Positions 36,233-58,186 of a DNA stretch of 64,000 nt are shown here, piece after piece. The number at the start of each line of letters is the position of its first letter. Within the stretch, counting starts at the first letter, position 1. Origin of the DNA: a virus; the IMG/VR virus record IMGVR_UViG_3300032356_000182, positions 1 through 64,000 of that record. One strand, given 5' to 3'. The notes below the pieces were generated by a model. That model saw only the letters and a program-made list of their open reading frames with translations. It was not told the origin of the DNA and ran no database searches. A program made the translations under genes and the position numbers.

Positions 36233-38230
36233 ATGACAAGAGATTCTCATAGTTTTTTTCGCGAATGGCTTTCTTCTAGTTTAACGAAGAGCTTAGGAGG
36301 TTTAGGCTCTGGTCATTATGCTCATGCGGGGCGTCCAGGTTTACGAGGAGGATCAGCGCCTAGTAGAAAAAAAGCTACCATATCTGGAGAAAATCACCCA
36401 GCAGCAGATATTCGAATTGTTATCGGGAAATCTGAGCATCTTCCAGAAGACAAGCGGTCGTCGAGTAAGCGCCAAGCTTTGGCTAAAACTATAAGAGATA
36501 TGTTGTTTAGTATTAATCCGGCTTATTTGCAAGGATTGAGAAAGATAACAACAGATCCTCTTCCAGGTCAAGGAGAGTGGCCTCGCGATATAGGCGGATA
36601 CTATACTCAATATGCTGATATTCATTTGAATGTTGCAGCCCTCTCTGGCGAAGACGAGGAGGAAGATATCAGACAAATTCTTTTGCATGAGATTGGCCAT
36701 CATGTGACACTTCGGCTTGGTCAGAAAGATCCGAAAGATTATGCTGGTCTTCGTGATATATGTTATCTGGATAGTAAAGATACGGTTTTCACGCAGCGGA
36801 AGCTAGATAGTTTTAAGAAAACCGTCCCTCTTGAGAAAGATGCTGCTGAAGACTATCTAATTGATTTTGGTTTGCGTCCTTATTCTCTAACGAATAGATT
36901 AGAGTTTGCCGCTGATGTTTTTGCTGTGATGATGCTTGGCGACCCTCTCAGGAAGACAAATCTGGCAAAGATGCTTGGCTTTGATAATCTAGAAGGTATC
37001 TTTCGTGTTGATGTTCCTCTATCAGGATATGGTCTTCCGAAGGTGGTTAAGAAGTATGAGCCTCAGATAGATGATTTAGGAGAGCTTGTTTCTTCAGTTT
37101 TGGCTCTCGGCGGCCCCGGTTCAGGCTTTCATGGCCATGCGGGTCGTCCTGGTAAAAGAGGAGGCTCCGCTCCTAGAAGTGACTTCGCTAATGCATCTGA
37201 TGAAAAGGAATTTAGAGATTTAGTTTTTAGGGAAAGAAGGTCGAAAGAGTCTAAAAAGTCTTATGAGTTTGAAAAGAACAAGCATGATTTTAGAGTTTTA
37301 CTGAAGCTTATTGATGATAGTGGGGGTCGAGATTTTCATCAGCAAGTTGCAGATTGGGGCAGATATGAAGGTCGTCTGTCTCCAGAGCGCGAGGAGATGC
37401 GGAGAAGTCTTGCTAATTGGGAATCTAAATTCCATCTTGATATATCTAGATTGCTAAATGGAAAGATTGCTGACGACTCTCAGCTTACGGCGTATGGAAG
37501 TATAAGTGAAGCTGAGCGGGATATCTCTGGTCTGGACGCTGCGTTTAGGGAAGCTCCTTCTCTGCCTCATGGCATAATTGTTAGAAGAGGATTGATGGCC
37601 GCATCTAAGGCGGCGGCTACTTTTTTGAGTGCAAAGCCTGAAGATCTTGTAGGGAAGATTTTGCTGTGTAAATCGTTTGTTAGTACTACGATAAGCAAAG
37701 ATGTTGTTAGGGATTTCTCTCGAGCTGGCTTGTTGGGGACGAAAACGGTCACTTTTAATATTAAAGTCCCGGCTGGTGAGAAATTCATTGCAGTGTCTAG
37801 TGCCGAATCTGAGATTCTGTTAGATCGAAATCTGCAGTTTGAGATTGAAGATTTTTCGATTACTTCTGGAGAATATCAGGAATACAACTATACGCTAAAG
37901 GTTGTCCGAGGAAAAATTCCAGATATTGAGCTTTCTGAGCCAGCTGTTTTCCTCGGCGGTCCTGGATCAGGTTATCACGGTCATGCTGGCCGCCCCTCTT
38001 TCCAGGGCGGTCCTGCTCCGAGAGGTGTTGGATTCGTAGAAGAGAGAGAAGAACAGGCACCTTATTCTGAAAAGCAGCCAGCTTTGTCTAAGCCTAGTGT
38101 ATTGGATGATTTTAGAGATGTTTTGAAAGCTTCTTTGCTCGTGAGGCTCAGAGCTTGTAAGCCGAATAGTCGTCTGGCTCGGAGATTAAGAAAGATATCA
38201 ACCTGCCTTGATGCGGCAGAGGAAAGGTAA
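36233..38230 (+). CDS. Tagged effector polyprotein 1: tag-zincin peptidase / tag-VIP2-like ADP-ribosyltransferase / tag-short basic tail
   Basis: Tags at 36293, 37106, 37952; HEIGH...YS...EFAAD; RRG...FVSTT...ESEILL. Confidence 0.85.
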   Translation: MTRDSHSFFREWLSSSLTKSLGGLGSGHYAHAGRPGLRGGSAPSRKKATISGENHPAADIRIVIGKSEHLPEDKRSSSKRQALAKTIRDMLFSINPAYLQGLRKITTDPLPGQGEWPRDIGGYYTQYADIHLNVAALSGEDEEEDIRQILLHEIGHHVTLRLGQKDPKDYAGLRDICYLDSKDTVFTQRKLDSFKKTVPLEKDAAEDYLIDFGLRPYSLTNRLEFAADVFAVMMLGDPLRKTNLAKMLGFDNLEGIFRVDVPLSGYGLPKVVKKYEPQIDDLGELVSSVLALGGPGSGFHGHAGRPGKRGGSAPRSDFANASDEKEFRDLVFRERRSKESKKSYEFEKNKHDFRVLLKLIDDSGGRDFHQQVADWGRYEGRLSPEREEMRRSLANWESKFHLDISRLLNGKIADDSQLTAYGSISEAERDISGLDAAFREAPSLPHGIIVRRGLMAASKAAATFLSAKPEDLVGKILLCKSFVSTTISKDVVRDFSRAGLLGTKTVTFNIKVPAGEKFIAVSSAESEILLDRNLQFEIEDFSITSGEYQEYNYTLKVVRGKIPDIELSEPAVFLGGPGSGYHGHAGRPSFQGGPAPRGVGFVEEREEQAPYSEKQPALSKPSVLDDFRDVLKASLLVRLRACKPNSRLARRLRKISTCLDAAEER

Positions 38231-38424
38231 TCAATCTTTTGAGGAAACAGCAGATGATCTAGAAAATCAACTCGGTCAAGCTAAAAATCTGAAAAACCAT
38301 AAGCCAAAATCAGAATAGAGCGATTTTTTAGTCTTTAGACATGCTTATTTTCAAGCTGTTGTTTTATTTGATTGCCTTAAAACTAGATCTTTAAGAAAAA
38401 TCTAAAAGGAAATAAAAATAAGTT

Positions 38425-38646
38425 ATGTCTTCATCTTGCGATAATGGATTTATAGGTTGTCCATCTTCTAATTGTCCGCGGGATAAATTAGCTAGACTCG
38501 GGCTTGTTAGAAATAAGCCGGGCATCTATCTCTGGTGCAAAAACTGTCACCGAGAGATAGGCTTTACTTTTGCGGAGCTCTTAGCTAGATTTGAGACTGA
38601 TGATTATATTGAAGAAAAAGCTAGCGAGCTTTCTAGGCGTTTTTGA
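38425..38646 (+). CDS. Small Cys4 zinc-finger protein (Mu Com-like spacing, tentative)
   Basis: CPSSNC...LARL...IYLWCKNCHREI. Confidence 0.5.
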   Translation: MSSSCDNGFIGCPSSNCPRDKLARLGLVRNKPGIYLWCKNCHREIGFTFAELLARFETDDYIEEKASELSRRF

Positions 38647-38716
38647 TAGGTTTGCTATGAGAGAGGAAAGAATTGATTTGAAATCAAATATTCTAACTTA
38701 AGATGTTTCGAGGGTT

Positions 38717-41380
38717 GTGTATATGAAAAGACGGGAATATGTCGTTGAAAGTCTTGCCCAGAGGATTTCTATCAAGCTTTTGAAAAAACTTGGAGGTCCT
38801 GGTTCAGGTCATCACGGTCATGCAGGAAGACCTGGTAAGCGTGGTGGCCCTGCTCCTTCTTCTGGAGGTGCCTCTATCGGTGTATCTGATGGCAAAGAAT
38901 ATGAAGATTTGGCTTTCAGAGATAGAAAGCCAGGAGAATCTGAGCAATCTTATGAATCTGATAAACATAAGCATAATGTTGATGTCCAGCTGAAGCTTGT
39001 TGAGGACAGCGACAGTCTAGATTTTCATCGGCGGGTAGTCTGGGGTGAAGGTAGGGATGATCTGTCTCAAGAATATAAAGAGATACAAGAAGGAATTATC
39101 AATTGGCAAAGTGAGTGTCATCTTGATATAGGTAGATTCTTAAGTGGGGAGATTGAAGATGACTCCCAGCTTAGCGTTTACGACAGTATAGATGAGCTTC
39201 GGGAGGACATCTCTAGATTGGATCTCGCATTTGAGAAAGCTCCTTCCTTGCCTTATGGTGTAGTTGTTAGAAGAGGATTAGTTAGTTCTTCTGGGCTCGC
39301 TTCTCTCCTCTTGAGCAGAAATCCAGAGGATCTTGTCGGAAAGGTTCTGTTTTGCAGATCTTTTATCAGCACTTCAATTGATAAGGATATTGCTGATCTT
39401 TTCTCCCAGACCTCTCTATCCAAAGGAGACAAAACAGTTACTTTTAGTATCAAAGTGCCGGCTGGAGAGAAGTTTATAGTCTTGGCTAACGACGAGCTTG
39501 AGATTCTGCTGAATCGAGATTTACGATTTGAGATTGAGGGTTGTTCTATCATTCCGGGGGAATATGAGAAATATGAGTATCAGCTTAAGGTTGTTCGAGA
39601 GAAACCTCCAGACATCAAATTTTCTGAACGAGTGCTAGCTCTAGGAGGTCCTGGTTCAGGATTTCATGGTCATGCTGGTCGCCCTGGTAAACGTGGTGGC
39701 TCTGCTCCGTCAAGTGGTATTAGTAAACTATTCTCAATCGTGCTTAAGGATCGGAAGACAGCTGAATCAATTATAAGCAATGAGTTAAAAGCAAGTTATT
39801 ACGATTTAGACTGCGATTTAGACTCATTTTTGAAATCTTTTGAGAAGCTAATTGAAGATGTTGTTGACAAGCTTTCGCGGGAATATTTCGAAGGTGTTAG
39901 CAAGATAACATTTGATCCACCGGAGGGATTTAAGTGGCTTACTAGTACAGAGGGCATGACTTCTCTTGGTATCTATGACGTTTTTCGACAAAGTATTCAT
40001 CTAAATCCTGTGCTTTTGCTCCCGTTTTATCGAGATAAAGCTCAAAAGGTTTTTGTTCATGAGCTGGGCCATCATGTTACAGACAATACTGGAAAGATAG
40101 CGAAAGATCTAGTTTCAGAAAAAGTGAATCCTTCAGTGGATGATACTGTATTTAATGATGATGTGCTGCATGAGTTACATGGGTTTTATTTAGTTTCCGG
40201 TCCTGGAAGCTTGAATAGGCTAGGTTTGCGAGAGTATTCGTTTTATTCAAAAGATGAGCTTGCTGCCGATGTTTTTATGACGTGGGCTCTTGGCTCTGAG
40301 TCTCAAAAAGAGGCTCTGGCCGAATTCTTGAAGGTAGGTTCCTTAGATGATCTCTTTGCGAAATCAAAGGCGATGAAATTGGCAGATGCTGTTGTTAAAC
40401 TGCCAGTGAAAAAGTTAGGAGGTCCTGGTTCAGGTCATCACGGTCATGCAGGAAGACCTGGTAAGCGTGGTGGCTCTGCTCCTTCTTCTGGGATGAGAAT
40501 ATCTGAAAAGAATGTTGCTGAAGAAAGTCAAGATATGGGGGCTGAATTAGTTAAGCAAGTTCCAGTTTTTTATGGATTCTCTGGCATTAGAGAATTTGTA
40601 GAAAAGATTGCTTCAGCAGGTGTGAAGTTTCATACTAATTTGTTTCCATCGAATTCAACTTTTATAAATTATTTGAGATATGCTGGAGTTGACTTATCTG
40701 AGTGCATGTCCGAAGAGATGGAAGTAAATGGTGAATACCATCAAACGCTAAGAGCTTGCAAGATTAGAGGTATGCTTGCTCTAGATGAAGCGCTATCTGA
40801 AGTAAATCCTGACGTTTCCACTGGCAGATATGGTGTTGGAGATAGCATTCAGGTTCAGTGGACGAGGCATTCAACTGATGAAGGGAATTTTATTGATGCT
40901 TTTCAAACCCTTTCAGCTGAGGAGCAAGGTGTCCCTATCAGAAGTCGAAGAGCGAAGCATGGTTCTAGCAAGTTTAAGGATAGCGCTACTGATACTGATT
41001 GGAAAATGGCTAAGGTCGCTTATGAAAGCGTTAAGAGAAGAACTCAAGAATTTTTCGAATCGAAGGGCTATGATCCTGAAGATGAAGTTTTGATTTTTAG
41101 AGGACAAGGACAAGGGCAATTTCAGGGTAAAGATATCAAAAACGGTAGCTATATCAAGTGGGAAGATATTGATTTGCATCCTCTGTCTTCCTGGTCTTTT
41201 AATCCTGCTACCGCGTATTCTTTTGCAGATGGTGGCAATGGAGTTGTTATGGTAGCAACTATAAAAGTAAAAGATATCATAAACTATTCAATCACAGGAT
41301 GGGGCTGCATCAATGAGGAAGAGGTGATTGCTCCGTGCAGTAAGCTAAGAAATATGCGTGTTATCTATGGGAGGCAGTAG
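38717..41380 (+). CDS. Tagged effector polyprotein 2: VIP2-like ART / zincin peptidase / divergent R-S-E ART
   Basis: Tags at 38789, 39641, 40415; RRG-FISTS-ELE; HELGH...YS...ELAAD; IFRG-SSWS-EEEVI. Confidence 0.85.
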   Translation: MYMKRREYVVESLAQRISIKLLKKLGGPGSGHHGHAGRPGKRGGPAPSSGGASIGVSDGKEYEDLAFRDRKPGESEQSYESDKHKHNVDVQLKLVEDSDSLDFHRRVVWGEGRDDLSQEYKEIQEGIINWQSECHLDIGRFLSGEIEDDSQLSVYDSIDELREDISRLDLAFEKAPSLPYGVVVRRGLVSSSGLASLLLSRNPEDLVGKVLFCRSFISTSIDKDIADLFSQTSLSKGDKTVTFSIKVPAGEKFIVLANDELEILLNRDLRFEIEGCSIIPGEYEKYEYQLKVVREKPPDIKFSERVLALGGPGSGFHGHAGRPGKRGGSAPSSGISKLFSIVLKDRKTAESIISNELKASYYDLDCDLDSFLKSFEKLIEDVVDKLSREYFEGVSKITFDPPEGFKWLTSTEGMTSLGIYDVFRQSIHLNPVLLLPFYRDKAQKVFVHELGHHVTDNTGKIAKDLVSEKVNPSVDDTVFNDDVLHELHGFYLVSGPGSLNRLGLREYSFYSKDELAADVFMTWALGSESQKEALAEFLKVGSLDDLFAKSKAMKLADAVVKLPVKKLGGPGSGHHGHAGRPGKRGGSAPSSGMRISEKNVAEESQDMGAELVKQVPVFYGFSGIREFVEKIASAGVKFHTNLFPSNSTFINYLRYAGVDLSECMSEEMEVNGEYHQTLRACKIRGMLALDEALSEVNPDVSTGRYGVGDSIQVQWTRHSTDEGNFIDAFQTLSAEEQGVPIRSRRAKHGSSKFKDSATDTDWKMAKVAYESVKRRTQEFFESKGYDPEDEVLIFRGQGQGQFQGKDIKNGSYIKWEDIDLHPLSSWSFNPATAYSFADGGNGVVMVATIKVKDIINYSITGWGCINEEEVIAPCSKLRNMRVIYGRQ

Positions 41381-41383
41381 GAA

Positions 41384-43769: not shown

Positions 43770-43923
43770 GAGGATTGAAAAGACTAGTGATTTTTATTTT
43801 GAGGGATCTTAACTTATAATAAAGACAGCTTGGTGAGGTTTTGCGTTGAGGCTTTTGGTAAAAACCAGATGCGAAAAACTATCGATTTTTGTCTATTTGA
43901 ATTTTTTGAGGAGAGGCTAAAAT

Positions 43924-45399
43924 TTGAATGGACTAGATTTAAGTGCGGCCTTAGCTTCAAAAATTTCAGAAAAGTTAACTCAACGTCTCGGCGGCCCTGG
44001 TTCTGGTCATCACGGCCATGCTGGCCGACCCGGTAAACGTGGTGGATCGGCTCCTTCTAGAAAAGGGATTGGAGCAGCAGAGAGCATGGAGAGTGAGAGC
44101 AGCTCAATTGGTGATCTCTATGCTCATGCATCAGAGAGAGCGAAGGAGCTGGCGAGGAAGACCGGTTTGCTTGCCTTAGATTCTGCTGCTGAGGCTTATC
44201 TAGCTAAGATTTCAGAGTTTTCTGAGAAGAAAGTTTCTGTAAAGTCTTTCTTAGAGGCGGTACGCTCTGAAGAAAAGTTTTATTCTATATGTGGTAAAAC
44301 GTCCGAGGATGATTTTACAGAGGAAGATGATTCTCGTCTGTTTAATTACTTTCGGAATTGGGTTGAAAATGAATATCTGCGAGCGCGACTCAATGTGGCT
44401 ATGTCTGAAGATGAAAGACTTGTTTTTGATAAGCTAGTTGACGCATATACTGATGTTTCTGATGATGGAGACTGGGAGTCTGTCTATGACTATAGTTTTT
44501 ATGCAGGCGCGGAAGCTGAAAAATATTTTAAGAAGATGGATCCGAATGAGAAAAAACTTCTTCGCAACGTTTTCAGAAAAATAGCGATTGATGAGATGTA
44601 TAGACACGTTATTGAAAATTTTGGATTTTACAACATAGACTTTGATAGAGAATTGGAATCTAATATTGGATTTAATTATTCAAACGAGACTATACTTTAT
44701 GATGCTATAGTGTATAATCCGATTAGGCCTAATGAGAAATATGATGCGTACTTCTCGAGACTAGCGTCAGTGTTGCTAGATGATGGCTTTCTTAGCGAGT
44801 ATGATGAGTTTCCGATTAAAAAAATGAAGACGATTTCTTCGGTTAGTTCTGAAGAGCGATCAGCTGTTGAGAAGGATATCTTCAGTTCCTGGGATAAGAC
44901 AAATCACAGCAGTTTTTCTGTCAAAGTTCTTGGAGTTTACCGAATTGGTTCTCCTTCGCAGAATGTGGTTGAAACTCAGAAAGCTCTTGGGAATATCCGA
45001 TCGGGTTTTTATCACGGCACTTCAATTAGACGTGCTCTCAATATTGCAGGTGGTGGATTCCGATTGGTGAGCAAACCCAAGACAGGACAGATGCTCGGGC
45101 CAGGGATATATCTTACTGATACTTCGTCTAAAAGTGTGCAGTATGTTGGAGAGGTTTACTCTCGCGACTCGGATAGAGGCGTATTGCTAAGAGTTAGCGC
45201 AGCGCTAGGCAAGGTAGCCAAGGTAACGAATCTTTCCTCATTTCAACAGCTGCCTGATGGTGACACTTATTTTGCTGCAAAGGGCGAGAGGTATGAAGAC
45301 TTCTTTCTGAAGAACTCTGAGTGGTGTGTAAAGAATCCAGACGCAATTTCTGTTGAATATTGGATTGATATGCAAAAGACTCGGAGTGCAAGAAAATAA
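43924..45399 (+). CDS. Tagged effector: PARP-like (H-Y-E) ADP-ribosyltransferase
   Basis: Tag at 43987; FYHGT, GQMLGPGIYLTD..SKSVQY, NSEWCV. Confidence 0.85.
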   Translation: MNGLDLSAALASKISEKLTQRLGGPGSGHHGHAGRPGKRGGSAPSRKGIGAAESMESESSSIGDLYAHASERAKELARKTGLLALDSAAEAYLAKISEFSEKKVSVKSFLEAVRSEEKFYSICGKTSEDDFTEEDDSRLFNYFRNWVENEYLRARLNVAMSEDERLVFDKLVDAYTDVSDDGDWESVYDYSFYAGAEAEKYFKKMDPNEKKLLRNVFRKIAIDEMYRHVIENFGFYNIDFDRELESNIGFNYSNETILYDAIVYNPIRPNEKYDAYFSRLASVLLDDGFLSEYDEFPIKKMKTISSVSSEERSAVEKDIFSSWDKTNHSSFSVKVLGVYRIGSPSQNVVETQKALGNIRSGFYHGTSIRRALNIAGGGFRLVSKPKTGQMLGPGIYLTDTSSKSVQYVGEVYSRDSDRGVLLRVSAALGKVAKVTNLSSFQQLPDGDTYFAAKGERYEDFFLKNSEWCVKNPDAISVEYWIDMQKTRSARK

Positions 45400-46941: not shown

Positions 46942-47010
46942 CGACAAAAGTTGTAGAGGATTTACTTTTTGATAGAATTTTCTCTTATTAAATATCGGGA
47001 GGATAGTTAT

Positions 47011-48575: not shown

Positions 48576-48591
48576 AGAAAAGGATTGAGAT

Positions 48592-50082
48592 ATGGCAGTA
48601 AAACCAGCGAGACCTGATTTAACCGAAATCGGTGTAACCGGCACGCCTATCTGGTCAGGCCAGATATTTCCAGATGATAATGCTTTGTTTAATGATATTC
48701 CTACCGCTATGGAAATCTATAGGAAGATGCGCAATGATAGCACTCTAAAAGCTTGCTTTCTCGTCAAGAGTTTGCCTATCAAGGCAACTAGATGGTGGGT
48801 AGAACCTGCTGATGAGAGTCCTGAAGCAGCGGATGTGGCTAACCAGATTGAAGAAAATCTTCTTAGAGGCATGACTGTAAATTGGACTAGAATTCTTCAT
48901 GAGATATGCTTAAAGTTTATCTATGGCTTTAGCATTTTTGAAAAAGTTTGGGAGGAAGATGGCGAAGGAAGAATTAAGCTAAGAAAATTAGCTATACGCC
49001 AAGCTGAAACTTTAAGCAGGTGGAATTTTGATGATAGCGGGGGGCCGAAAGAGATGGTTCAGATGGCTTTTTCCCCCAACAAAGGCATGGAGACATTCGT
49101 TATCCCTATTGAGAAACTAGTTGTGTTTGTTAATAATCAAGAAGGTTCTAATCTACTGGGCAGATCTGATTTTAGAGAGTGCTATAGAGAATGGTGGACG
49201 AAGGACAGATTGATGCGTCTTGAATTGATAGATGTTGAGCGTGATTCTATCGGAGTTCCGGTCATAGGCCTTCCAGAAGGTGCAAGCAAGGCTGATCAAG
49301 CAGTTGCTAAGAGCATTGTTACGTCAATCAGAAAAGATGAGGGTGGTGGGGTAGTTATTCCTCAGAGATGGCAGTATGGGTCTTGGCCAGCTGGCGGAAC
49401 TAATCGAGTAAATTCTTCAGAAATTATCAGAAGATATGACAGACAGATGTTAGTTTCTTGGCTAGCTCAGTTTATTGATTTGGGTTCCGGTGAAGTGGGC
49501 TCTTACGCTTTGTCTGAAGATCAGACAAATTTCTTCTTGATGTCTCTAGAAGCTGAAGCAAACTATATAGAAGATTGTTTCAATCGTTATGTGATTCCTC
49601 AGATGTGTGATTATGGAGGATATGCTCTGTCAAAGAGCGGAAAGTATCCGAGGCTTCGTCATCGAGATATCGGAAGATTTGATGCGAAGGCTTTTGCTGA
49701 TATCTTGAATTCACTTCTGCAGGGCGGCTGGATTACAGCTAGAGGAAAGCTGGATGAAGAATTTTTGCGAAAGAAGCTTTTCTTACCGGAACCTGAGAGC
49801 TACGAACAGCCTCAGCCTTCTGTGGAAGCGAATATTTCAGAAGAGCAACCCGAAGAGGAAAATCCCAGCGCGATGATAGAGAAAGAAACACCGAAAAGAT
49901 TTGGAACGTCAAAAATTATCAAAATCACTCCTGATCTTAGCGATGGTCAAGAAAATGAGAGCGAATATCTAGCTGGACTTCGTGCCAAGCTTATTCGTAC
50001 TTTTGAGGAATCCTCTAAAGCTAGAAAAAGTGCGTTAGAAAATCTTGAGGACAGCGAGTGGGAACGATATGAAAACAGCTAG
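48592..50082 (+). CDS. Portal protein, DUF935/Mu gp29-like
   Basis: EIGVTG, YGFSIFEKVW, LLGRS, ERDSIGVP, GSYALS, NRYVIP. Confidence 0.9.
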   Translation: MAVKPARPDLTEIGVTGTPIWSGQIFPDDNALFNDIPTAMEIYRKMRNDSTLKACFLVKSLPIKATRWWVEPADESPEAADVANQIEENLLRGMTVNWTRILHEICLKFIYGFSIFEKVWEEDGEGRIKLRKLAIRQAETLSRWNFDDSGGPKEMVQMAFSPNKGMETFVIPIEKLVVFVNNQEGSNLLGRSDFRECYREWWTKDRLMRLELIDVERDSIGVPVIGLPEGASKADQAVAKSIVTSIRKDEGGGVVIPQRWQYGSWPAGGTNRVNSSEIIRRYDRQMLVSWLAQFIDLGSGEVGSYALSEDQTNFFLMSLEAEANYIEDCFNRYVIPQMCDYGGYALSKSGKYPRLRHRDIGRFDAKAFADILNSLLQGGWITARGKLDEEFLRKKLFLPEPESYEQPQPSVEANISEEQPEEENPSAMIEKETPKRFGTSKIIKITPDLSDGQENESEYLAGLRAKLIRTFEESSKARKSALENLEDSEWERYENS

Positions 50083-50134: not shown

Positions 50135-51292
50135 ATGCCTACACCAGAGCAGATAAAAGATAGAATTGAAAAACTGACCAAAACTCAGCGACTTGTGCAT
50201 CTTGTTTACCGGAAAACTGCAGATGATATTTCCGATACTTATGAAGTTTTGTTTGACATAGGTCGGAGGACCTACGAGCAGGCTTTGACATCCATGGCAG
50301 CGCAAGTAGGATGTGGTAATAGATTTGCACACCTTTCTGATGGACTTATATTGAAAGAGCTATCTGAACTCTATTATTCTCATGCCGCTTCTATTGTAGC
50401 TACTTATAATTTTGACTTAGCTGGGGCAATTCAGAGCATCTATAGCGAGAACAAATATGCTAATCGGTATTATTATGCGAAAAGACTAGATGAGTGGGAA
50501 AAGCTGCGTAGCTCGTGGAAAGACGATCAGATTTTGCAGATGACTATCGCTTATGCTAAAGATATGGCTGTTAGAGATTTCGCTAGATTTAACTTGACTG
50601 ATGGATATGGGATTTTTGAAGGGCCGGACGATTCTATAACTTGCGATGCTTGTAAGAGTTTGATAGATGGCAATCCTTATAGCCTTGAGGACTTTGCGAA
50701 AATCAGCTGTCCTGTTCATGTTAATTGCCGGCATAATAAAGCTATCTACGCTGGGAAGTTTGATAATGTGGCTTGTGAGGAATTGTGGCTGGGAGGAGTT
50801 GGAAAACTATCTGATGGAGACGCAGGTATCGTTAAGTTGTCAGATGAGCTTAGGCAGAGGGATTGGCTCGATATCTATTCTGAATTTGGTAATCAGGCAT
50901 ACGCGGACATTTTATCATTAAAAGATGCGTATGATGTTTCCAAGGGAATTGATTTTTCTAGGAGATGGGGACTTTCCAGAGGAGTATATTCAGGTTTTGT
51001 TTGGAAATCATCAGAAAACTATACGATTATTGATGAAGTTCAGCGCACTGTTTTGCCGTATTCGGTTGTTGTTAAGTTAATGAATCCATTCGTGACTTTG
51101 AGGGTTTGGGATGTTTCTAGAAAATACTCTGAGCTCAAGCAGGCTTGCGAAGATCTTAGCTGGGATGAGATAGGCCGCTATCTTGCGCAACTTGGTTATG
51201 ATTCGCTTTCTTTAATTGAGAATGACGATAGGCGAATCGTATATTTTGGGAGAAGTCAGAACTTGAGGTTTTTCCTAGGGAAGAGCGCTTGA
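50135..51292 (+). CDS. MuF/SPP1 gp7-like head morphogenesis protein with C-terminal extension
   Basis: DSITCDAC...CPVHVNCRH directly after portal; extension KLMNPF...LGYDSL...IVYF. Confidence 0.8.
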   Translation: MPTPEQIKDRIEKLTKTQRLVHLVYRKTADDISDTYEVLFDIGRRTYEQALTSMAAQVGCGNRFAHLSDGLILKELSELYYSHAASIVATYNFDLAGAIQSIYSENKYANRYYYAKRLDEWEKLRSSWKDDQILQMTIAYAKDMAVRDFARFNLTDGYGIFEGPDDSITCDACKSLIDGNPYSLEDFAKISCPVHVNCRHNKAIYAGKFDNVACEELWLGGVGKLSDGDAGIVKLSDELRQRDWLDIYSEFGNQAYADILSLKDAYDVSKGIDFSRRWGLSRGVYSGFVWKSSENYTIIDEVQRTVLPYSVVVKLMNPFVTLRVWDVSRKYSELKQACEDLSWDEIGRYLAQLGYDSLSLIENDDRRIVYFGRSQNLRFFLGKSA

Positions 51293-51329
51293 AAAACGCT
51301 GAATTTGAGTTGTTTCATAGGGACTAGCG

Positions 51330-54300
51330 ATGAATTCTGAAATCAATCTAAAGAAGCTCGGTGGCCCTGGGTCGGGATTTCATGGCCATGCAGGCCGTCC
51401 TGGTCGACGTGGAGGTTCAGCTCCAAGAAAATCATCAGAGGTTAAATATCATGACTATCAGGGAAGTCAGGGTCCTAGAGAGGCAATCTACAGATTTTAC
51501 CAAGAGCTTTCTGATAAAGAGCGAGAGAAGATTAAAGAGTATATCAATATTCCCAGCGATCAGGTGAGGGAGCCTTTCTACTTCTATACAAGCGATCCAG
51601 TTTCCGAGGTTCAGAAGTTATTCTTTTTATATACAGGTGGCGGCTTTAGAGAAATAAATAACTATCTTCGGAAAGACAAAAAGTCAGCGAAACCTGAATC
51701 TTCAATCTATCAGGTGTTGACTTCAGATGAAATTGAGAAGGCTGTGCAAACTATTGATCGTTTATTTCAAGAGAACAGCAGCACGCTTCCTAGAAATACA
51801 TATCTTTACCGAGGCATTTCTGGTGCATCTAATCTAGCTGCTTCTTTAAGATCTAGATTGGAAAAAGGTGAAACAAATATTGAGTTTTCGGACTTAGGTT
51901 TTGTTAGCACTTCGCTCTCTCCGAGTTCTGCCGCGTTTTTTGGACATCTTCATTATCGTAGTCAGATGCCTAATCAGCGACAGATTATGTTGAAGATAAG
52001 AGCTCCTAAAGGGCTTAAGGTTTTGCCGGTTCTTGGCAGCGAGGCCGAAGTCATTTTGAATCGGGGCTCACGTTTTAGAATAGTTAAGGTGATTGGAGAG
52101 AAACGTTATAGAGATTATCAAAAACAGTATCGGTATTCGGGCTCAGTATTTGATGTTTTTGAAGTAGAACTGGTACAACAAAAGAATGAGAAAAACTTAA
52201 GCGAAGCTATTCGTCTTGGGGGCTCGGGTTCAGGTTATCATGGTCATGCAGGACGTCCTGGTAAGCGTGGTGGCTCTCTTCCTCGAAATGCATTATCATT
52301 GGATTCTCTTGTTGCTAGAGGTATTGAGCCTTGGACGATGAGTCTTTCTGAATTCTACAATATCATGGGTGTGAAGAGAGTTAGCGATAGCGATAGCAAG
52401 ACGATGTCTAAGGAAGAATATCAGGCTGCTATTGAGAAAGAATTTAAGGTTGAAGATCTTTATGACAGGGCTATAAAAGAGAGGTTGGCGCTTGGATTGC
52501 CGGTTTCTGATAAAGTTCTTGAAGATGAAGGCGCTTGGTTAGTACGCCAAGCTTTGAATTCTTTGCAGGATTTTCCACAAGAGTCTTATCACGTTTGCAC
52601 TGCAAAGAAGCAGATTCTGGAGGATGGCTTGAAATCTAGACAAGAGCTTGGTATGAAGGCCGGCATCGGTCTTGGTGGTGGAGATGATTCTACTATAAGT
52701 GTCACTACCAACTTCAGATTGGCGAAAGATATCTTCAAGGTTATGCGAGAGGCACAGCAAGTAGCGGCTGGGAAGCTAACTATTCGTGAAATATGGGAAG
52801 ATGCAAAATCATATGGCGAGGAATGTGCTGCTAGGTGCTTAACTTATTTTCTTCCGCCCCCTTCTTTAGGCTTGCCAGAGTTTAAGTATGATTTCAAAAA
52901 TCCTGATAACGTTCCTGCTGGCTTGAAAGAGCTCCTTGAGGGCTATGAAACTATATACTCATCTGGAGATCCAAACAAATCATTTCCAATACGCGGCTCT
53001 AGGTGGCGTCAAGATAAGAAAGACCCGAAGGTTTGGAAAAGAAAACTTGCGAGGTCCGAAGTTTTAGAGAGGACTTGGCGGTTTTATTCGGAGCATTTTC
53101 TTCGGGTTCGGCAAGAAGCTGGGGGACCTGAAGATCCGCTGTTCTTCGGAACAGATTGGAAAAAATTAGCGAAAGTTAAATCTGAAAATATCGCTATCTT
53201 GAAAGTCAGACCAAAACCAGGGGCAAAAGGTTTTCCGGTTTCTGGTATGGATGAGTGGCGTATCTGGACGGGCAAAGCTTTAGAAGTTGAGCCGATTGAT
53301 TTGAAATCTCTAGTAGAGCAAACTATTCTTGTTTATATGGATGGCTTAAAGCCTTTTTCAAGAACGATGAAATCAGATAAAAAATCAGGTATCGGACAAT
53401 CGGACAAAAAATCAGAGCTCATCAGATCCATTGATAAACTTATTGACCTTTTGCGGCTGGGCGGCCCTGGTTCTGGTCATCACGGCCATGCTGGCCGCCC
53501 TGGCAAAAGAGGAGGTTCTGCTCCAAAAGAATATAGAGCCTATACCAGAGAGGAATTTGATTCTGTTTTTCAATCTTTGACTACACCTGAATATCGAGAT
53601 AGATACAATTGTGGAGATTCTCGCTTTGTTCCGAAAAGTCAAGATGATTTTTCTGCTTTTAGCGTTTGGAGATATGTTAATGATGCTTATTTAGGTATCA
53701 ATTCTGTTCTCAGAGAGGCACAGAATACAGGCAAATCTATCGAGAAAGTAACAGATTTTCAAAGATCTTCTCTAGATGATAAGTTTGATACGCTTGATCT
53801 TATCGCTGGCATGGATGCTGCTTTTGCTGAGGCACCTAGATTGCCGGAGCCGACAGTTGTTTATCGCGGTATTCCGTTTGATTCGGTTCTTAAGCGAAAT
53901 TTTGATAAATTGGAGCCGGGCTTTATTATAAAAGATCCAAAATTCGGCAGTACTAGTTTGAGTAGAAGTCTTGCTGAAAAATGGGCTGGGTTTCCTCCAG
54001 AGTATTTGACTCCAGAAAACGAGATAGGTGCTTTGCTAGAGATACGATTGCCGAAAGGAACCAAATTCATATATCCAAACACAAGCGAGCAAGAGCTTAT
54101 TCTAGATCGTGATGGGGAATATCGAGTTATTGATGTTCGTAAAGAGAAAGCAGTTGTTCAGTATAAATATCGAGATCCACGGGTTTATGTGCAGCACGTT
54201 TTAGTTTTAGAGCGGCTGCCTGAGAAGCAGAAAGCTAAAAAATTAGGCGGCCCTGGTTCTGGTCATCACGGCCATGCTGGCCGACCCGGTAAACGTGGAG

Positions 54301-55130
54301 GCAGTGCTCCTAGAAGTATCTACGATTATCAGGATTATACTGGAAGAGAAGCTGATTTCTTGGCCGATTATCAATCTACAGAGGAAGGTCAGCGATTTTA
54401 TAAGGAGTACTTGACTCGACTAAAAGCTCTTGTGTTTAGAGAAAATATGTCGATGCCAAAGGAAGTTCATGAGAAGCTGAAGAGTCTGATTAATTATATA
54501 AACTTAGGTCATAGTCCTATAAATAGATATTTGCGTAATTCGGATGCATTTGTTCCCTATGAAGACGAGGAAATACCTGAGATAAGAAAAAGGATATCTG
54601 ATTTAGATGCTTTGTTCAAAGAAGTACCTGGTTGTTCTAAAGATATGATTGTTTATCGAGAAATTCATCATCTATCACAAACTGCAGAGAGATTTGTGAA
54701 TGAAAAAGATAGATTGATTGGAAAAATCATCAGGGATGAGGGTTTTTGCAGTACAACAATAGACAGAGACGTAGCGGAAAAGATGGATCGTGGTCCCACA
54801 TCTTGGTGGTATGATCATATGAGGATACCTGGAGAAGGGATACCAGCTAGAGTTTTATTTAAGATAAAAGTTCCGAAAGGAACCAGAGGCATCTATATCG
54901 AAAATGAAGTAAGAGAAGAGAACGAGTTTCTCTTGAACAGAGGTTTATCTTTTCGGGTTGTTAGCGTGGAGAAAAATCATCAGCCAGCATATTCCAGTGA
55001 AGGATATGATATCATAGCTCATGATCAGTATGAATTTACCTTAGAGCTTTTGCCTGAGGTTAAAACTTTGGCTGAGATGCTTATCTTTCGATATAGAGCT
55101 AAACTGCGTAAAGAGAACAACCGATGCTAA
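51330..55130 (+). CDS. Tagged effector polyprotein (1266 aa): three VIP2-like ARTs plus one unknown His-type ART-like domain
   Basis: Tags at 51357, 52215, 53457, 54243; YRG-FVSTS-EAE; YHVCT..ILEDGLK; YRG-FGSTS-EQE; YRE-FCSTT-ENE. Confidence 0.88.
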   Translation: MNSEINLKKLGGPGSGFHGHAGRPGRRGGSAPRKSSEVKYHDYQGSQGPREAIYRFYQELSDKEREKIKEYINIPSDQVREPFYFYTSDPVSEVQKLFFLYTGGGFREINNYLRKDKKSAKPESSIYQVLTSDEIEKAVQTIDRLFQENSSTLPRNTYLYRGISGASNLAASLRSRLEKGETNIEFSDLGFVSTSLSPSSAAFFGHLHYRSQMPNQRQIMLKIRAPKGLKVLPVLGSEAEVILNRGSRFRIVKVIGEKRYRDYQKQYRYSGSVFDVFEVELVQQKNEKNLSEAIRLGGSGSGYHGHAGRPGKRGGSLPRNALSLDSLVARGIEPWTMSLSEFYNIMGVKRVSDSDSKTMSKEEYQAAIEKEFKVEDLYDRAIKERLALGLPVSDKVLEDEGAWLVRQALNSLQDFPQESYHVCTAKKQILEDGLKSRQELGMKAGIGLGGGDDSTISVTTNFRLAKDIFKVMREAQQVAAGKLTIREIWEDAKSYGEECAARCLTYFLPPPSLGLPEFKYDFKNPDNVPAGLKELLEGYETIYSSGDPNKSFPIRGSRWRQDKKDPKVWKRKLARSEVLERTWRFYSEHFLRVRQEAGGPEDPLFFGTDWKKLAKVKSENIAILKVRPKPGAKGFPVSGMDEWRIWTGKALEVEPIDLKSLVEQTILVYMDGLKPFSRTMKSDKKSGIGQSDKKSELIRSIDKLIDLLRLGGPGSGHHGHAGRPGKRGGSAPKEYRAYTREEFDSVFQSLTTPEYRDRYNCGDSRFVPKSQDDFSAFSVWRYVNDAYLGINSVLREAQNTGKSIEKVTDFQRSSLDDKFDTLDLIAGMDAAFAEAPRLPEPTVVYRGIPFDSVLKRNFDKLEPGFIIKDPKFGSTSLSRSLAEKWAGFPPEYLTPENEIGALLEIRLPKGTKFIYPNTSEQELILDRDGEYRVIDVRKEKAVVQYKYRDPRVYVQHVLVLERLPEKQKAKKLGGPGSGHHGHAGRPGKRGGSAPRSIYDYQDYTGREADFLADYQSTEEGQRFYKEYLTRLKALVFRENMSMPKEVHEKLKSLINYINLGHSPINRYLRNSDAFVPYEDEEIPEIRKRISDLDALFKEVPGCSKDMIVYREIHHLSQTAERFVNEKDRLIGKIIRDEGFCSTTIDRDVAEKMDRGPTSWWYDHMRIPGEGIPARVLFKIKVPKGTRGIYIENEVREENEFLLNRGLSFRVVSVEKNHQPAYSSEGYDIIAHDQYEFTLELLPEVKTLAEMLIFRYRAKLRKENNRC

Positions 55131-55143
55131 GGGAGGTAGAAAC

Positions 55144-56853
55144 ATGCGTATTCTAACTGATGGAGGAAAATACATAACCAGAGATAAAAATCGTAAAAAT
55201 AGTAGCAAATATCTTCATGCTTTGAGGTTGTTGCTGAGATGGAAAAAATTTAGGAAACTTGGAGGTCCTGGCTCGGGTTTTCATGGACATGCCGGACGTC
55301 CAGGTTACGTTGGGGGCTCTGCACCTTCTGGAGAGAGCATGTCTGGTAATGAGAATGTTCCGAAAGAGAAAGATGCGGAATATCAAGCTTCTACGATAGA
55401 TGAATATGCTTCAAAAGAACTTTCACGGTTTAGAATAAAAGATGAGATTGAGAAGCATCAAGTATCTGGTTCGCTATCTTCAAAGACGGTTGGGCTTATT
55501 ATAGCGAATGGCCGGGCGGTGCTTGAAAATCATGCGAGCGCTTTGAGTTCAGATACTAGAGGTCTTGCAGAAGGAATTCTTGATAGTTATCGTGCTGTCC
55601 TGCTGGAAGGCTTGAGAGATGGATCTCTTGCCGATGTTTCTACTGGTGATTTGGATTTTGTGTTAAGCGATTCGATAGAGAAGCTGATCGTGCAAGAGAT
55701 TGAATCAAGAAAAAGAACGCTGGGTGATCACGGTATTCGACATGCTATTTCAAATGCAAGAAATTCTTTAGATATACTGAATTCTTTAGCAGAAGGTGGG
55801 CAGAAGATAACCGCACGAGATAAGTTGATAGCTTTGCAGACTCAGCTTATTCATGATGTAGGTTTTGTCGCTGAGAGTCAGCGGAAAAGCTTTGATAATG
55901 AAATTCATCCTGAGATTTCGGCTGAATATGCTAGAAAACCGGAATATGAGCGAGTTTTCGGAGAGAAGTTTAATGATTTTTTAGAGACGGTTAGAACTCA
56001 TGATGGCGTTGATATTGATTGGGAAAGAGAGCCCGTAAAATCAGCGGTTAGGACAGCAGATAATTTTGCTTTGTTTTCCAGAGAAAAATTGCCAGATTTG
56101 TTTAATCGGATTCCTGGAGCTCTTGATAAATTAGCTCAGCTGCAGTTAGCTATTGCAGGAAATAAGGCGCAAGAGGTTTTGCCTATAGTTAAAGCTGATC
56201 TGCATAGGCTTATTGATAAAAGCAATTTGGATAAGAATTTGAAAGAAGATCTGCATCATGCGGCTGATGAGGTTAGCATAATCACAGGTAAGTTTACTCT
56301 TGGTATGGTAGCTGGAGCTTTTGACTCTTTTTCTTTTGATGATGGTGTTCTTGATATTTATCTCGTTCAGCGCCCAGATAGAGAAATCTTGAATGGTCTC
56401 TTTGACTTAGGGGAAAGACAGTTCAATAAATTTATCAAAGCCTATGAAGCTAAGGGAAGTTTAGATTCTGGCTTAGAGCTTAGTAGAGGTGGAAAGAAAA
56501 TATATAGAGTCGTTACTAAAGCAGAAATGGGTTCTAGCGTTTTGAGTTCTTTAGCTTCTGCCAGTGTTCGGCCATTACTGGCAAAAGCTGTTCGGATGAT
56601 TGATTTCTCTAAAGTTAGCAAACGAAATCGACAGGCTGCTTTCAATGCCATTAGCAAAGCTTTAATAGATAAAGCTACGCCGAGCGAAATCGCAGAGATA
56701 AAGAATCTCATCCTATCTGGCAGAGATGCTAGTTCTATATTAGGCTTCAAGCTCACAGCTAAAGAGCAGGAATATATCTACTCTAAAGTTGAGCTAATGG
56801 CTTATTTGAATGCAAACGCGAGGATATTGCTAAGAAAATCAAGATTAAAATAA
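55144..56853 (+). CDS. Tagged effector: HD-domain phosphohydrolase
   Basis: Tag at 55258; DHGIRH...IHDVG...H...THD...TADN. Confidence 0.8.
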   Translation: MRILTDGGKYITRDKNRKNSSKYLHALRLLLRWKKFRKLGGPGSGFHGHAGRPGYVGGSAPSGESMSGNENVPKEKDAEYQASTIDEYASKELSRFRIKDEIEKHQVSGSLSSKTVGLIIANGRAVLENHASALSSDTRGLAEGILDSYRAVLLEGLRDGSLADVSTGDLDFVLSDSIEKLIVQEIESRKRTLGDHGIRHAISNARNSLDILNSLAEGGQKITARDKLIALQTQLIHDVGFVAESQRKSFDNEIHPEISAEYARKPEYERVFGEKFNDFLETVRTHDGVDIDWEREPVKSAVRTADNFALFSREKLPDLFNRIPGALDKLAQLQLAIAGNKAQEVLPIVKADLHRLIDKSNLDKNLKEDLHHAADEVSIITGKFTLGMVAGAFDSFSFDDGVLDIYLVQRPDREILNGLFDLGERQFNKFIKAYEAKGSLDSGLELSRGGKKIYRVVTKAEMGSSVLSSLASASVRPLLAKAVRMIDFSKVSKRNRQAAFNAISKALIDKATPSEIAEIKNLILSGRDASSILGFKLTAKEQEYIYSKVELMAYLNANARILLRKSRLK

Positions 56854-56861
56854 TCGCTAAT

Positions 56862-56890
56862 TTGACAGATTTTTCAAGATCATATACACT
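56862..56890 (+). promoter_or_regulatory. sigma70-like promoter for the capsid operon
   Basis: TTGACA-17-TACACT. Confidence 0.6.
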
Positions 56891-56938
56891 TTTAAGTAGT
56901 ATCTGAAATATTCTTAAGAACTTATAGATATTAGAAAG

Positions 56939-56970
56939 AGCCCTTGAGCCTATCTCAAGGGCTTTTTATT
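56939..56970 (+). terminator. Intrinsic terminator-like hairpin just before the protease RBS
   Basis: AGCCCTTGAG-cctat-CTCAAGGGCT followed by TTTTATT. Confidence 0.7.
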
Positions 56971-56974
56971 AGGA

Positions 56975-58186
56975 GTGCCAATGAGAAAACAAGAAGTTGT
57001 TGTTCATTTTCAGCCTGTAAAGCTCAGTGAGGAAACTACAGAGAAGAAGTGGATTGATTTGGTTATGGATGGCGAATATATCAGCATGGACGGTAGTCCT
57101 GTTGTTATTAAGCCTTCCGACATTGAGATGTATATCAGAAATTTTGAAAAGAATGTACGTGGCCAAGAGATTCCTATCACTGTAGATCATCCTGAGCAAG
57201 GAGGAATAGCTGCTGGATGGTTAGAGAAACTTCGAGCAGTAAAGCGGTGGGTTACGACGATTGATGGAAAAAAGGTTTTGAAAACTGTTCTGCAAGGGCT
57301 GCCATCTTGGACCCCCTATGGGAGAGAAAGAGTTGCTAATCGAGAATATCGCTATATTAGCGCTGAACTTCTTCCTAACGCTTTACGTGCTGTTAGTTTG
57401 GTTAATTTTCCAGCGGTTAAGGGTATGCAACCAGTCGAGCTTGGAGAAAATAAAACTGATGGGATGATTCACAAATATCTAATTGGAGGTGATTTATCAA
57501 TGGATGAGACGAAGCCGATCACAGAAGAAGACGCGATTGATGCGTTGGCCGAAAGCATTGTAGATAAGGTTATAGCAGCCTTTGAAGAAGATCAAGATCA
57601 GCCCGAAGACGAGGAAGATGCGAAAGAGTTTGGTGAAGATCTTGACGATGAAGATCTTGAGGATCTTGAAGACCTTGATGACGAAGACCTTGAGGAGAGA
57701 AAGAAGCTCGGCGAGAGTCCAGAGGCTTTGCTGGGCTTGATTGAAAGCATTGTTGAAGATAAGATTAAGCCTCTGATGCAAGAAAACAAAAGATTGAGAA
57801 AAAGTCTTAGCGAGACTGAAAGTCTCTTGGGCAAGCTGATGGAAGAGAAGAAGCGGGCAGAGCTTCGGGAAAAAGTTGCTCAAGCAGCTTCATTGGGAGA
57901 TGGCAAGGTTCTGAGTCCTGCTGTTAGATCTCTAATTGAAGAAACTATTGTTTCAGATCCGAAGTGTATCGAAGGTAATGTCTTGAAGCTTGTCAAAGCA
58001 CTTACCCGACAAGATGCAATAGTAACTTTGGGTGAAGTGGGATCGAATTTCAACACTGGAGTACCTGCTCGCGGGACGCCGGAATTTGAGAAAGCTCTTG
58101 ATGCTCGTGCTAAGGAATTGCAAGCTACAAAAGGCTTGTCGTATCTAGCAGCTGCTAAGGAAGCGATGAAAGAATTCAGATCTTGA
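56975..58186 (+). CDS. Mu gpI-like prohead protease fused to scaffold
   Basis: IPITVDH, AAGW, WTPYG...EYRYISAE, VSLVNFPAVKGM; acidic and coiled-coil C-half. Confidence 0.9.
   Translation: MPMRKQEVVVHFQPVKLSEETTEKKWIDLVMDGEYISMDGSPVVIKPSDIEMYIRNFEKNVRGQEIPITVDHPEQGGIAAGWLEKLRAVKRWVTTIDGKKVLKTVLQGLPSWTPYGRERVANREYRYISAELLPNALRAVSLVNFPAVKGMQPVELGENKTDGMIHKYLIGGDLSMDETKPITEEDAIDALAESIVDKVIAAFEEDQDQPEDEEDAKEFGEDLDDEDLEDLEDLDDEDLEERKKLGESPEALLGLIESIVEDKIKPLMQENKRLRKSLSETESLLGKLMEEKKRAELREKVAQAASLGDGKVLSPAVRSLIEETIVSDPKCIEGNVLKLVKALTRQDAIVTLGEVGSNFNTGVPARGTPEFEKALDARAKELQATKGLSYLAAAKEAMKEFRS
57500..58186 (+). CDS. Nested in-frame scaffold protein (Mu gpZ-like)
   Basis: Internal GGAGGT RBS (57485-57490) before in-frame ATG 57500 (MDETKP). 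Confidence 0.65.
   Translation: MDETKPITEEDAIDALAESIVDKVIAAFEEDQDQPEDEEDAKEFGEDLDDEDLEDLEDLDDEDLEERKKLGESPEALLGLIESIVEDKIKPLMQENKRLRKSLSETESLLGKLMEEKKRAELREKVAQAASLGDGKVLSPAVRSLIEETIVSDPKCIEGNVLKLVKALTRQDAIVTLGEVGSNFNTGVPARGTPEFEKALDARAKELQATKGLSYLAAAKEAMKEFRS

Follow-up and report, generated by a model that had tools for sequence, protein, structure and literature searches.

We describe here a 22-residue, glycine-rich tag that occurs 15 times in seven predicted cargo genes of an uncultivated phage, and we propose that the prohead protease of this phage cuts directly before it. The window, the whole stretch of DNA analyzed, covers the first 64 kb of a metagenomic IMG/VR record of 95,738 bp (IMGVR_UViG_3300032356_000182) that carries direct terminal repeats and a completeness rating of complete; its genes lie on the plus strand throughout, and the head module spans 36-60 kb. 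A selected Leu before the tags, conserved [LF]-[SAG]-E sites in the Mu gpI-like protease-scaffold fusion of the same phage and a protease-matched residue before the tags of other phages together make a cut directly before GG the most economical reading. From these sequence patterns, we lean towards the view that the protease would cut after Leu or Phe before a small residue. Open reading frames (ORFs) are named below by their first position in the window.

A glycine-rich tag preceded by an invariant leucine

In this phage, the tag has the consensus GGPGSG[HFY]HGHAGRPGKRGGSAP, and its copies stand either N-terminally after a leader or between protein modules. The leaders are short, amphipathic and mostly basic, and they end in Leu. 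A strict DNA pattern is matched by 12 of the 15 tags and the tag core by all of them, three tags having single substitutions. The first-pass annotation of this DNA had stated that every tag starts with L-GG, which holds for 15/15 copies. Since the Leu is encoded by five codons (CTC, CTT, CTA, CTG, and TTA) from both Leu codon families and the copies share only 65-85% of their tag DNA sequence, this residue must be held by selection at the protein level, not by gene conversion or recent copying. The possibility that the tag is an AT-hook was considered and rejected; Lys-Arg after GRPG occurs only in this phage, and most tags have Glu or Gln and then Val.

36293..36361, plus strand: Leu and tag 1, variant LGGLGSGHYAHAGRPGLRGGSAP
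37106..37174, plus strand: Leu and tag 2
37952..38020, plus strand: Leu and tag 3, degenerate (GRPSFQGGPAP)
38789..38857, plus strand: Leu and tag 4
39641..39709, plus strand: Leu and tag 5
40415..40483, plus strand: Leu and tag 6
43987..44055, plus strand: Leu and tag 7
45835..45903, plus strand: Leu and tag 8
47062..47130, plus strand: Leu and tag 9
47947..48015, plus strand: Leu and tag 10, a C-terminal orphan
51357..51425, plus strand: Leu and tag 11
52215..52283, plus strand: Leu and tag 12
53457..53525, plus strand: Leu and tag 13
54243..54311, plus strand: Leu and tag 14
55258..55326, plus strand: Leu and tag 15

Conserved candidate sites in the protease-scaffold

The protease was assigned to the Mu gpI-like type in the first-pass annotation, in agreement with a PF10123 match of 47.6 bits (cut-off 25.2) and with phrog_976, annotated as head maturation protease. 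Residues H70 and S127, in the numbering of P0001, which is the ORF numbering minus 2 (H72 and S129 in the ORF), are invariant in 101 aligned homologues and present here, and form a putative catalytic pair. The AF2 model (mean pLDDT 59.8) has a beta-rich domain at 22-143 followed by long helices, and the gene lies just upstream of the major capsid gene. A Foldseek comparison of this model with the PDB gave nothing meaningful, and a PDB sequence search returned coiled-coil noise only.

56975..58186, plus strand: Mu gpI-like prohead protease-scaffold fusion, 403 amino acids (PF10123, 2.2e-12; phrog_976, 6.9e-24)
57023..57031, plus strand: site 0, LSE of VKLSE, preceding strand 1 of the protease domain; L/F in 78% of homologues, A/S/G in the next column
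57440..57448, plus strand: site 1, LGE of PVELGE, at the protease/scaffold junction, aligned in 147 homologues
57629..57901, plus strand: four further scaffold motif copies, KEFGE, KKLGE, KSLSE, and ASLGD
58028..58036, plus strand: site 2, LGE of VTLGEVGS, before a C-terminal helical hairpin and about 50 residues from the C terminus

All scaffold strings that had been read as [LF][SGA][ED] cleavage motifs in the first-pass annotation (VKLSE, VELGE, KEFGE, KKLGE, KSLSE, ASLGD, and VTLGE) are present, together with an eighth, DALAE, that it had not listed. Eight copies compare with 1.96 expected from composition-preserving shuffles (4-fold, p=0.0004). The longer form [VI]-x-[LF]-[SGA]-[ED] is enriched only in the protease-scaffold (3 copies versus 0.21 expected, p~0.0014); as a window-wide signal it was rejected (16 copies versus 10.4 expected).

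A profile search of 1.84 billion representative proteins yielded 8059 relatives of the protease-scaffold. In an alignment of 147 homologues of at least 300 amino acids, drawn from the 150 best-listed relatives plus earlier hits and about 20-40% identical, V-[ED]-[LF]-[SAG]-E is kept at three linker positions. Site 1 (P 82%, L 95%, S/A/G 87%, E/Q 62%) comes directly after NFPAVKG, the conserved last strand of the protease domain, and the alignment turns to gaps behind this site. Site 2 reads V 82%, D/E 74%, F/L 93%, E 92%, and G 100%; in the 101-sequence alignment, G354 is invariant like H70 and S127, and L154 and E352 reach at least 90%. Sites 1 and 2 lie between ordered elements in segments with pLDDT<50 (144-189 and 344-359 in P0001 numbering), and the hairpin helices after site 2 are modeled with a pLDDT of about 90. 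Such strong conservation in linkers predicted to be disordered resembles that of processing sites, and docking motifs would also fit. A complex prediction for the protease domain (residues 18-148) with the IELSE-tag junction peptide gave an ipSAE of 0.01, which is not evidence either way. No cleavage sites of Mu gpI were found in the literature searched.

In relatives with an N-terminal ChaB-like extension, site 0 falls exactly between this extension and the protease domain. ChaB-like domains (PF06150) are N-terminally fused to several Mu gpI-like protease-scaffolds (P0003, P0004; L147:16946-18454). A ChaB-like domain was also seen in a 503-amino-acid acidic protein of G015, a phage with Arg before its tags, and this protein may be an unrecognized scaffold or protease.

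The residue before the tag follows the head protease family

A degenerate DNA pattern of the tag core matched at least 115 stretches in IMG/VR. The 156 unique tags among the matches listed have the consensus GGPGSGN[FWY]GHxGRPG[EQK][VRI]GGS followed by a Gly/Ser-rich run. Among 51 long carriers listed, 14 are Phage_portal_3 fusions, and others are MuF fusions, DUF2213 proteins, ADP-ribosyltransferases (ARTs) and proteins with a Zeta toxin domain, topoisomerase IB or further domains; ART-PolyVal likewise occurs in tag-bearing proteins of other phages. The residue before GG among the listed tags is K in 32%, D in 21%, L in 12%, and R in 9%, with N and E also found. It is near-uniform within a phage, and positions -2 and -3 vary: we counted 9/9 K, 9/9 N in one locus (11/11 in that genome), 7/7 R, and 4/4 D in other phages. 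Leu before GG is not general to the tag; K, D, N, R or E takes this place in other phages. A weak hydrophobic periodicity (positions -12 and -15/-16) precedes tags in general.

We screened 54 tag-bearing records for PF10123, DUF2213 (PF09979), and S77 (PF03420). For the first 33, the screen extended to S78, ClpP, and S49, of which the latter two were essentially absent. Head protease matches allowed 23 of the 54 records to be classified, and the pre-tag residue tracked the protease family in 23/23. Asp precedes the tag in 13/13 records with a strong DUF2213 match, and Leu or Ala in 5/5 with a divergent or weak one. Leu was found in both PF10123 records with a standard tag, this phage and G031; a third has a weak PF10123 match and only a degenerate tag, and PF10123 was detected in just 3/54 records. 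In the three Peptidase_S77 records (the T4 gp21 family), [L/I/F]-x-E stands before all 15 tags. An attempt at falsification left this pattern intact: 17 records picked for E-type tags included none with DUF2213 or PF10123, and the other 37 none with S77. T4 gp21 cuts after Glu in L/I-X-E (PMC9026906), a previously published rule that the S77 tags reproduce; applied to a Glu directly before GG, it places the scissile bond of S77 phages at the N-terminal edge of the tag.

The converse search, for the tag in 51 PF10123 loci with flanks of up to 10 kb, gave 0/51. PF10123 proteases do not need the tag, nor is the tag confined to phages with Mu gpI-like proteases. A conserved D-[SG] (IKD-S or NID-S/G) comes after the protease domain in the nine strong DUF2213 proteins aligned and parallels the D-GG tags of these phages in the same way as VEL-[SG]E parallels L-GG in the phage described here. 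In G016, G008, and G034, which have divergent DUF2213 proteases, the tag itself directly follows the protease domain in the protease-scaffold gene, the place of site 1 in PF10123 proteins.

Several tag-bearing phages showed further features. PHROGs and Pfam revealed no head protease in the K-, N-, and R-type phages G023, G010, G015, and G025. G010, a complete 80-kb phage with 11 tags, all N-type, and no head protease among the families searched, encodes a 1587-amino-acid protein (L145:15181-19941) with an HK97-type portal (PF04860), a weak, sub-cut-off MuF match (E=0.028), and further modules, between which stand three tags, each after Asn. In the S77 phages L123, L211, and L220 (G033, G045, and G052), the pre-tag leader forms a conserved helix, about 14 residues long ([IV]K[DS]I.SEV...LFE) and reminiscent of T4 capsid-targeting sequences. 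G006 (L020), the only record with Peptidase_S78 (HK97-type) above the cut-off, has Lys before its tag; the HK97 protease cuts its capsid protein after Lys103, which would make G006 a second match to a known specificity.

Motifs at domain ends of the cargo and of the MuF-position protein

Every motif string quoted in the first-pass annotation is present at the position it implied, including those in the cargo and in the minor head protein at the MuF position.

37076..37084, plus strand: LGE of DDLGE, 11 residues before tag 2
37931..37939, plus strand: LSE of IELSE, after the ART and 8 residues before tag 3
39620..39628, plus strand: FSE of IKFSE, 8 residues before tag 5, a paralogue of IELSE (repeat D4)
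40379..40387, plus strand: LAD of MKLAD, 13 residues before tag 6
47869..47877, plus strand: LSE of IQLSE, 27 residues before tag 10
47911..47919, plus strand: LAD of MKLAD, a duplicate of the linker at 40379 (repeat D3, 90% identical)
50789..50845, plus strand: MuF-position junction after the conserved domain, W-L-G-G, then GKLSD (50807) and VKLSD (50837)
52197..52205, plus strand: LSE of KNLSE, 7 residues before tag 12
55068..55076, plus strand: LAE of KTLAE, 20 residues before the C terminus of ORF 51330

The first-pass annotation had suggested a check for enrichment at domain boundaries. The 25 residues upstream of the eight internal tags hold 6 motifs in 184 positions versus 23 in 3919 elsewhere (about 5-fold, Fisher p=0.0015), or 4 in 138 (p=0.012) once paralogous and duplicated copies are collapsed. 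The domain-end motifs of the cargo are only weakly above background. A further 23 motif copies inside cargo domains, and AHLSD and KELSE inside the MuF-position domain, had gone unmentioned. In an unbiased scan of 125 residue classes, the top enriched feature of the internal-tag windows was a hydrophobic-basic helix before the tag, not [LF][SGA][ED].

ORF 50135, the MuF-position protein, gave no Pfam or PHROG match, and none to PF04233 even at E<5; its assignment as MuF follows gene position and a CxxC...HxNCxH pattern and is correspondingly putative. It is 45% identical to its homologue in L151 (IMGVR_UViG_3300014656_001046), the closest relative found, and 37% to that of G023 (E=2e-42), and homology stops at ELWLG. 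Past this boundary, the phage described here has L-GG, GKL-SD and VKL-SD and then an unassigned 150-amino-acid domain, L151 has F-AE (FAE), and G023 has a tag 12 residues on, followed by a region with a weak GNAT match. Considering this together with the tags after the protease domains of G016, G008, and G034, we conclude that the tag boundary and L-[SGA]-[ED] occupy the same junctions in different phages.

Tagged cargo genes and the head module

The seven tagged genes, with leaders of 10-39 amino acids, are inserted at three points of the head module, among the terminase, portal, MuF-position, and protease genes; a cement-like protein gene also belongs to this module.

36233..38230, plus strand: ORF of 665 amino acids; leader, tag, HEIGHH zincin-like module, tag, ART, degenerate tag, and 69-residue tail
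38717..41380, plus strand: ORF of 887 amino acids; leader, tag, ART, tag, HELGHH zincin-like module, tag, and C-terminal module
41997-43769, plus strand: gpA-type large terminase
43924..45399, plus strand: ORF of 491 amino acids; tag at residue 23 and PARP-like catalytic domain (PF00644, 2.2e-15)
45769..46515, plus strand: ORF of 248 amino acids; tag and a domain without family assignment
46969..48018, plus strand: tagged ART of 349 amino acids, tags at residues 33 and 328 (PF03496, 6.7e-16)
48592..50082, plus strand: Mu-type portal (PF06074, 1.1e-44)
50135..51292, plus strand: minor head protein at the MuF position; conserved N-terminal domain (residues 1-220) and C-terminal domain of 150 residues
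51330..55130, plus strand: ORF of 1266 amino acids; four tags (residues 11, 297, 711, and 973), three ART modules, and one unassigned module
55144..56853, plus strand: ORF of 569 amino acids, tag at residue 40
58659..59651, plus strand: major head protein (phrog_1005, 2.3e-50), without motif copies

The enzyme set comprises at least six ARTs, one PARP-like enzyme, two HExxH modules, and others. The cargo ARTs match PF03496/ADPrib_exo_Tox and carry PHROG labels of the Alt-like kind; the match extends at 1.2e-50 across three stretches of ORF 51330 and reaches 1e-09 in ORF 36233, which has its tags at residues 22, 293, and 575. The last module of ORF 38717 is ART-like as judged by its R/S/ExE motifs, and ORF 55144 had no Pfam or PHROG match. 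The ART of ORF 46969 matched only itself at E<1e-5.

Copying has occurred among these genes. The leader and tag of ORF 45769 duplicate those of ORF 43924 (repeat family D2, 93% identical), and 47872-48014, a linker and tag in ORF 46969, repeats 40340-40482 of ORF 38717 at 90% identity. ORF 46969 ends in a complete orphan tag (47947-48015) followed directly by the TGA stop codon (48016-48018), with nothing downstream. The copied linker-tag unit suggests that modules were shuffled by recombination at such units or that a downstream module was lost. In ORF 36233, only the 69-residue tail comes after the third, degenerate tag, and the 486 nt from there to ORF 38717 hold no long ORF; this region (37952-38716) may be a decayed cargo module. 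Between the last cargo gene on the terminase side and the portal gene, an untagged 130-amino-acid ORF (48183-48575) shows CxC...CxH, SWIM-like by eye, and has no family match.

L151, with a protease 39% identical to the one described here, is syntenic for terminase, portal, MuF-position gene, protease-scaffold, cement, and capsid as well as for downstream glycosyltransferase and radical-SAM genes, and it lacks all seven tagged cargo genes at all three insertion points; these genes are therefore accessory cargo. The L151 protease-scaffold has a long N-terminal extension. Nucleotide and protein comparisons with a GenBank phage collection gave no match to this phage, and a related-locus search with the protease alone found none.

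A processing model and its alternatives

We propose that the prohead protease would cut after Leu or Phe where a small residue follows in an exposed linker. Cuts at L|GG of all 15 tags would remove the leaders and split the polyproteins into single enzymes starting with GGPGSG, and cuts at V-x-[LF]|[SGA]-E at the three conserved places in the protease's own chain would trim its N terminus, part protease from scaffold, and free the scaffold from the C-terminal helical hairpin. This hairpin may bind the coat, a role that we presume by analogy with the P22 scaffold. The extra L-[SA]-[ED] copies a few residues before some tags and after the MuF-position domain would be possible secondary trimming sites. 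The cargo would consist of capsid-internal enzymes, probably ejected into the host, and the amphipathic leaders may act like T4 capsid-targeting sequences. The first-pass annotation had proposed a cleavage code shared by effector junctions and protease-scaffold, by which the protease frees single enzymes. The conserved scaffold sites, the selected Leu, and the covariation sustain this idea; four of the scaffold copies and the domain-end motifs of the cargo lend it little.

Several points weigh against our proposal. The motif [LF][SGA][ED] was chosen post hoc, after the data had been seen, and the cargo overall is not enriched in it (6.5 motifs per 1000 amino acids versus 5.0 in other genes). 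The internal tags at residues 711 and 973 of ORF 51330 have no upstream motif, and LGG occurs at background frequency in unrelated proteins. Half of the eight scaffold copies (KEFGE, KKLGE, ASLGD, and largely KSLSE) lack conservation in relatives. The families searched gave no usable protease assignment for 31 of the 54 records, among them the K-, N-, and R-type ones; three complete E-type genomes lack S77; and the covariation amounts to four protease lineages, within which tags share ancestry. The direct results concern anatomy, conservation, and covariation, from which any cut, the protease making it, and the packaging of the cargo are predicted. The V-E-L-S-E sites also fit a cut after Glu as made by gp21. 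Finally, a conserved core of about 20 residues far exceeds what a cleavage site needs, so the tag must do something besides cleavage.

The cut after Glu deserves separate consideration. A distant relationship is presumed between Mu gpI-like and gp21-like prohead proteases. Proteases of the gp21 type cut after Glu (PMC9026906; PMC10052503), and the family motifs V-E-L-S-E and V-D-F-S-E contain L-x-E, with the Glu at 92% in site 2. If [LF]-[SGA]-E were read in this register, with Leu at P3 and Glu at P1, L-GG would stay uncut, modules would be freed only where L-S-E lies upstream, leaving a few extra residues before the tag, and the N-terminal leaders would remain. No L-S-E is present, however, in two internal junctions or in any N-terminal leader, Glu reaches only 49% at site 1, and the invariant, selected Leu before all 15 tags comes without a Glu. 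The S77 phages, moreover, have their Glu directly before GG, which puts the bond at the tag boundary. We consider this register unlikely. A chance origin of L-[SGA]-[ED] appears very unlikely to us. About one copy of the degenerate motif is to be expected in every 150-200 amino acids, scaffold coiled coils abound in L, E, S, and A, IELSE, IKFSE, and IQLSE are paralogues whose pattern may have been inherited with the ART C termini, the two MKLAD copies are one duplicated linker, and hydrophobic-small-acidic ranked only eighth among the enriched classes of the internal-tag windows. This would not account for the excess of scaffold copies over composition-preserving shuffles or for three sites kept across homologues that have diverged so far.

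It is also conceivable that nothing is cut and that the tags are flexible linkers or packaging/ejection signals on polyproteins delivered whole, as proposed for some polyvalent proteins. A core of about 20 residues conserved across phages with different proteases is what a binding or targeting element would show, and the motif density of the cargo as a whole lies at background. Yet one targeting signal per protein would be enough, and the tag is found on every module; ORF 46969 ends in a tag with nothing behind it; portal fusions contain tags, and others stand immediately behind protease domains, places at which one expects separation; and the protease-matched pre-tag residue would be left unexplained. 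We judge delivery without cutting to be rather unlikely. Processing by the embedded HExxH modules instead of the prohead protease was predicted for polyvalent proteins by Iyer et al. 2017, who cite P1 DdrB (PMC5512222), and ORFs 36233 (HEIGHH) and 38717 (HELGHH) carry one such module each. The other five tagged ORFs (51330, 46969, 43924, 45769, and 55144) have no HExxH, no Pfam peptidase family matched the two modules, no metallopeptidase appears among 25 of the 29 families listed for 51 tag-bearing proteins elsewhere, and the pre-tag residue follows the head protease family, all of which makes autoprocessing of this kind quite improbable.

The core is kept in phages whose proteases and portals are unrelated to one another (Portal_Mu here, Phage_portal_3 and Phage_portal elsewhere) and must therefore have a role other than protease recognition. 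It is tempting to speculate that the tag is a portable two-part cargo module, its N-terminal edge cut by the resident prohead protease and its invariant 20-residue core staying on the enzyme; we put this forward tentatively, as a possibility short of an even chance. The pre-tag residues would then be tuned to the protease: Mu gpI-like ones would call for Leu, DUF2213 ones for Asp, gp21-like ones for L-x-E, and other families for Lys, Arg or Asn. The core would serve a protease-independent step, e.g., DNA retention, threading through portal and tail, or protection of the new N terminus. If so, the pre-tag residue would foretell the specificity of uncharacterized protease families, and injected effectors could be recognized by the tag from sequence alone.

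Relation to known phage systems

Trimming of internal cargo at short motifs by head proteases is textbook knowledge for T4 and phiKZ-like phages and is not new. In T4, internal proteins and Alt carry capsid-targeting propeptides that are removed by the prohead protease gp21 (PMC9026906). The phage described here resembles T4 in the presence of an ART and other nonstructural proteins in the prohead core, in trimming by the head protease at a very short motif and in ejection with the DNA, as far as our predictions hold; T4 gp21 also cuts itself and the scaffold, which is comparable to the self-cuts predicted here. Unlike in T4, the protease belongs to PF10123 and not to S77, the candidate P1 residue is Leu or Phe instead of Glu, with leaders ending in Leu, the cargo is strung into polyproteins of up to four modules, and the glycine-rich 22-residue tag that follows every predicted cut has no T4 counterpart. 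As PF03420 is absent from the genome, this is not a member of the gp21 system, and its mechanism may be analogous. In SPN3US and phiKZ, many packaged ejection proteins are matured by a gp21-like protease at the motif A-x-E, with Val favored at P4 and Ser at P1', and this protease removes its own C-terminal propeptide (PMC10052503). In contrast to the phage described here, these are jumbo phages with long propeptides, another protease family, no repeated tag, and no enzyme polyproteins.

Polyvalent proteins (PMC5512222) are similar in that virion genes include those for multidomain effectors (with ARTs, zincin-like peptidases, and other domains) that are predicted to be delivered together with the DNA and processed. 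ORFs 36233, 38717, and 51330, with 2-4 modules per polypeptide, fall within the range of two to fifteen unrelated effector domains that characterizes polyvalent proteins. The signature domains of the latter (MPTase-PolyVal, ART-PolyVal, and LPD families) were not matched at E<0.01; unlike those of polyvalent proteins, the ARTs found here match ADPrib_exo_Tox and not ART-PolyVal. The processing proposed for them is autoprocessing by embedded metallopeptidases and not by a prohead protease; neither "glycine-rich" nor "linker" was found in the text of that paper, and the passages retrieved from it on motifs do not describe the tag.

Another point of comparison is given by MuF-fused polymorphic toxins of temperate phages, which Jamet and colleagues reportedly described in 2017 as borne on the minor head protein next to the portal and presumed to be packaged and injected. 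The effectors found here differ in being separate genes downstream of the MuF-position gene, which itself gives no PF04233 match; the relative G023 comes closer, fusing its MuF-position protein to a tag and a weak GNAT-like match.

No mention of the glycine-rich tag was found in the literature searched, against which the tag, the protease-matched residue before it, and the three candidate sites conserved among Mu gpI-like proteases are new. If the proposed processing holds true, this would be the first predicted specificity of Mu gpI-like prohead proteases, namely a cut that follows Leu or Phe and precedes Ser, Gly or Ala; the same logic would predict that DUF2213 proteases cut after Asp. It would also explain how separate ARTs are delivered from few polyprotein genes, and the combination of phage-specific residue and tag would flag packaged, injected effectors in uncultivated phages, where most lack annotation. 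Like the capsid-targeting system of T4, the tag suggests itself as a portable handle for loading foreign proteins into capsids.

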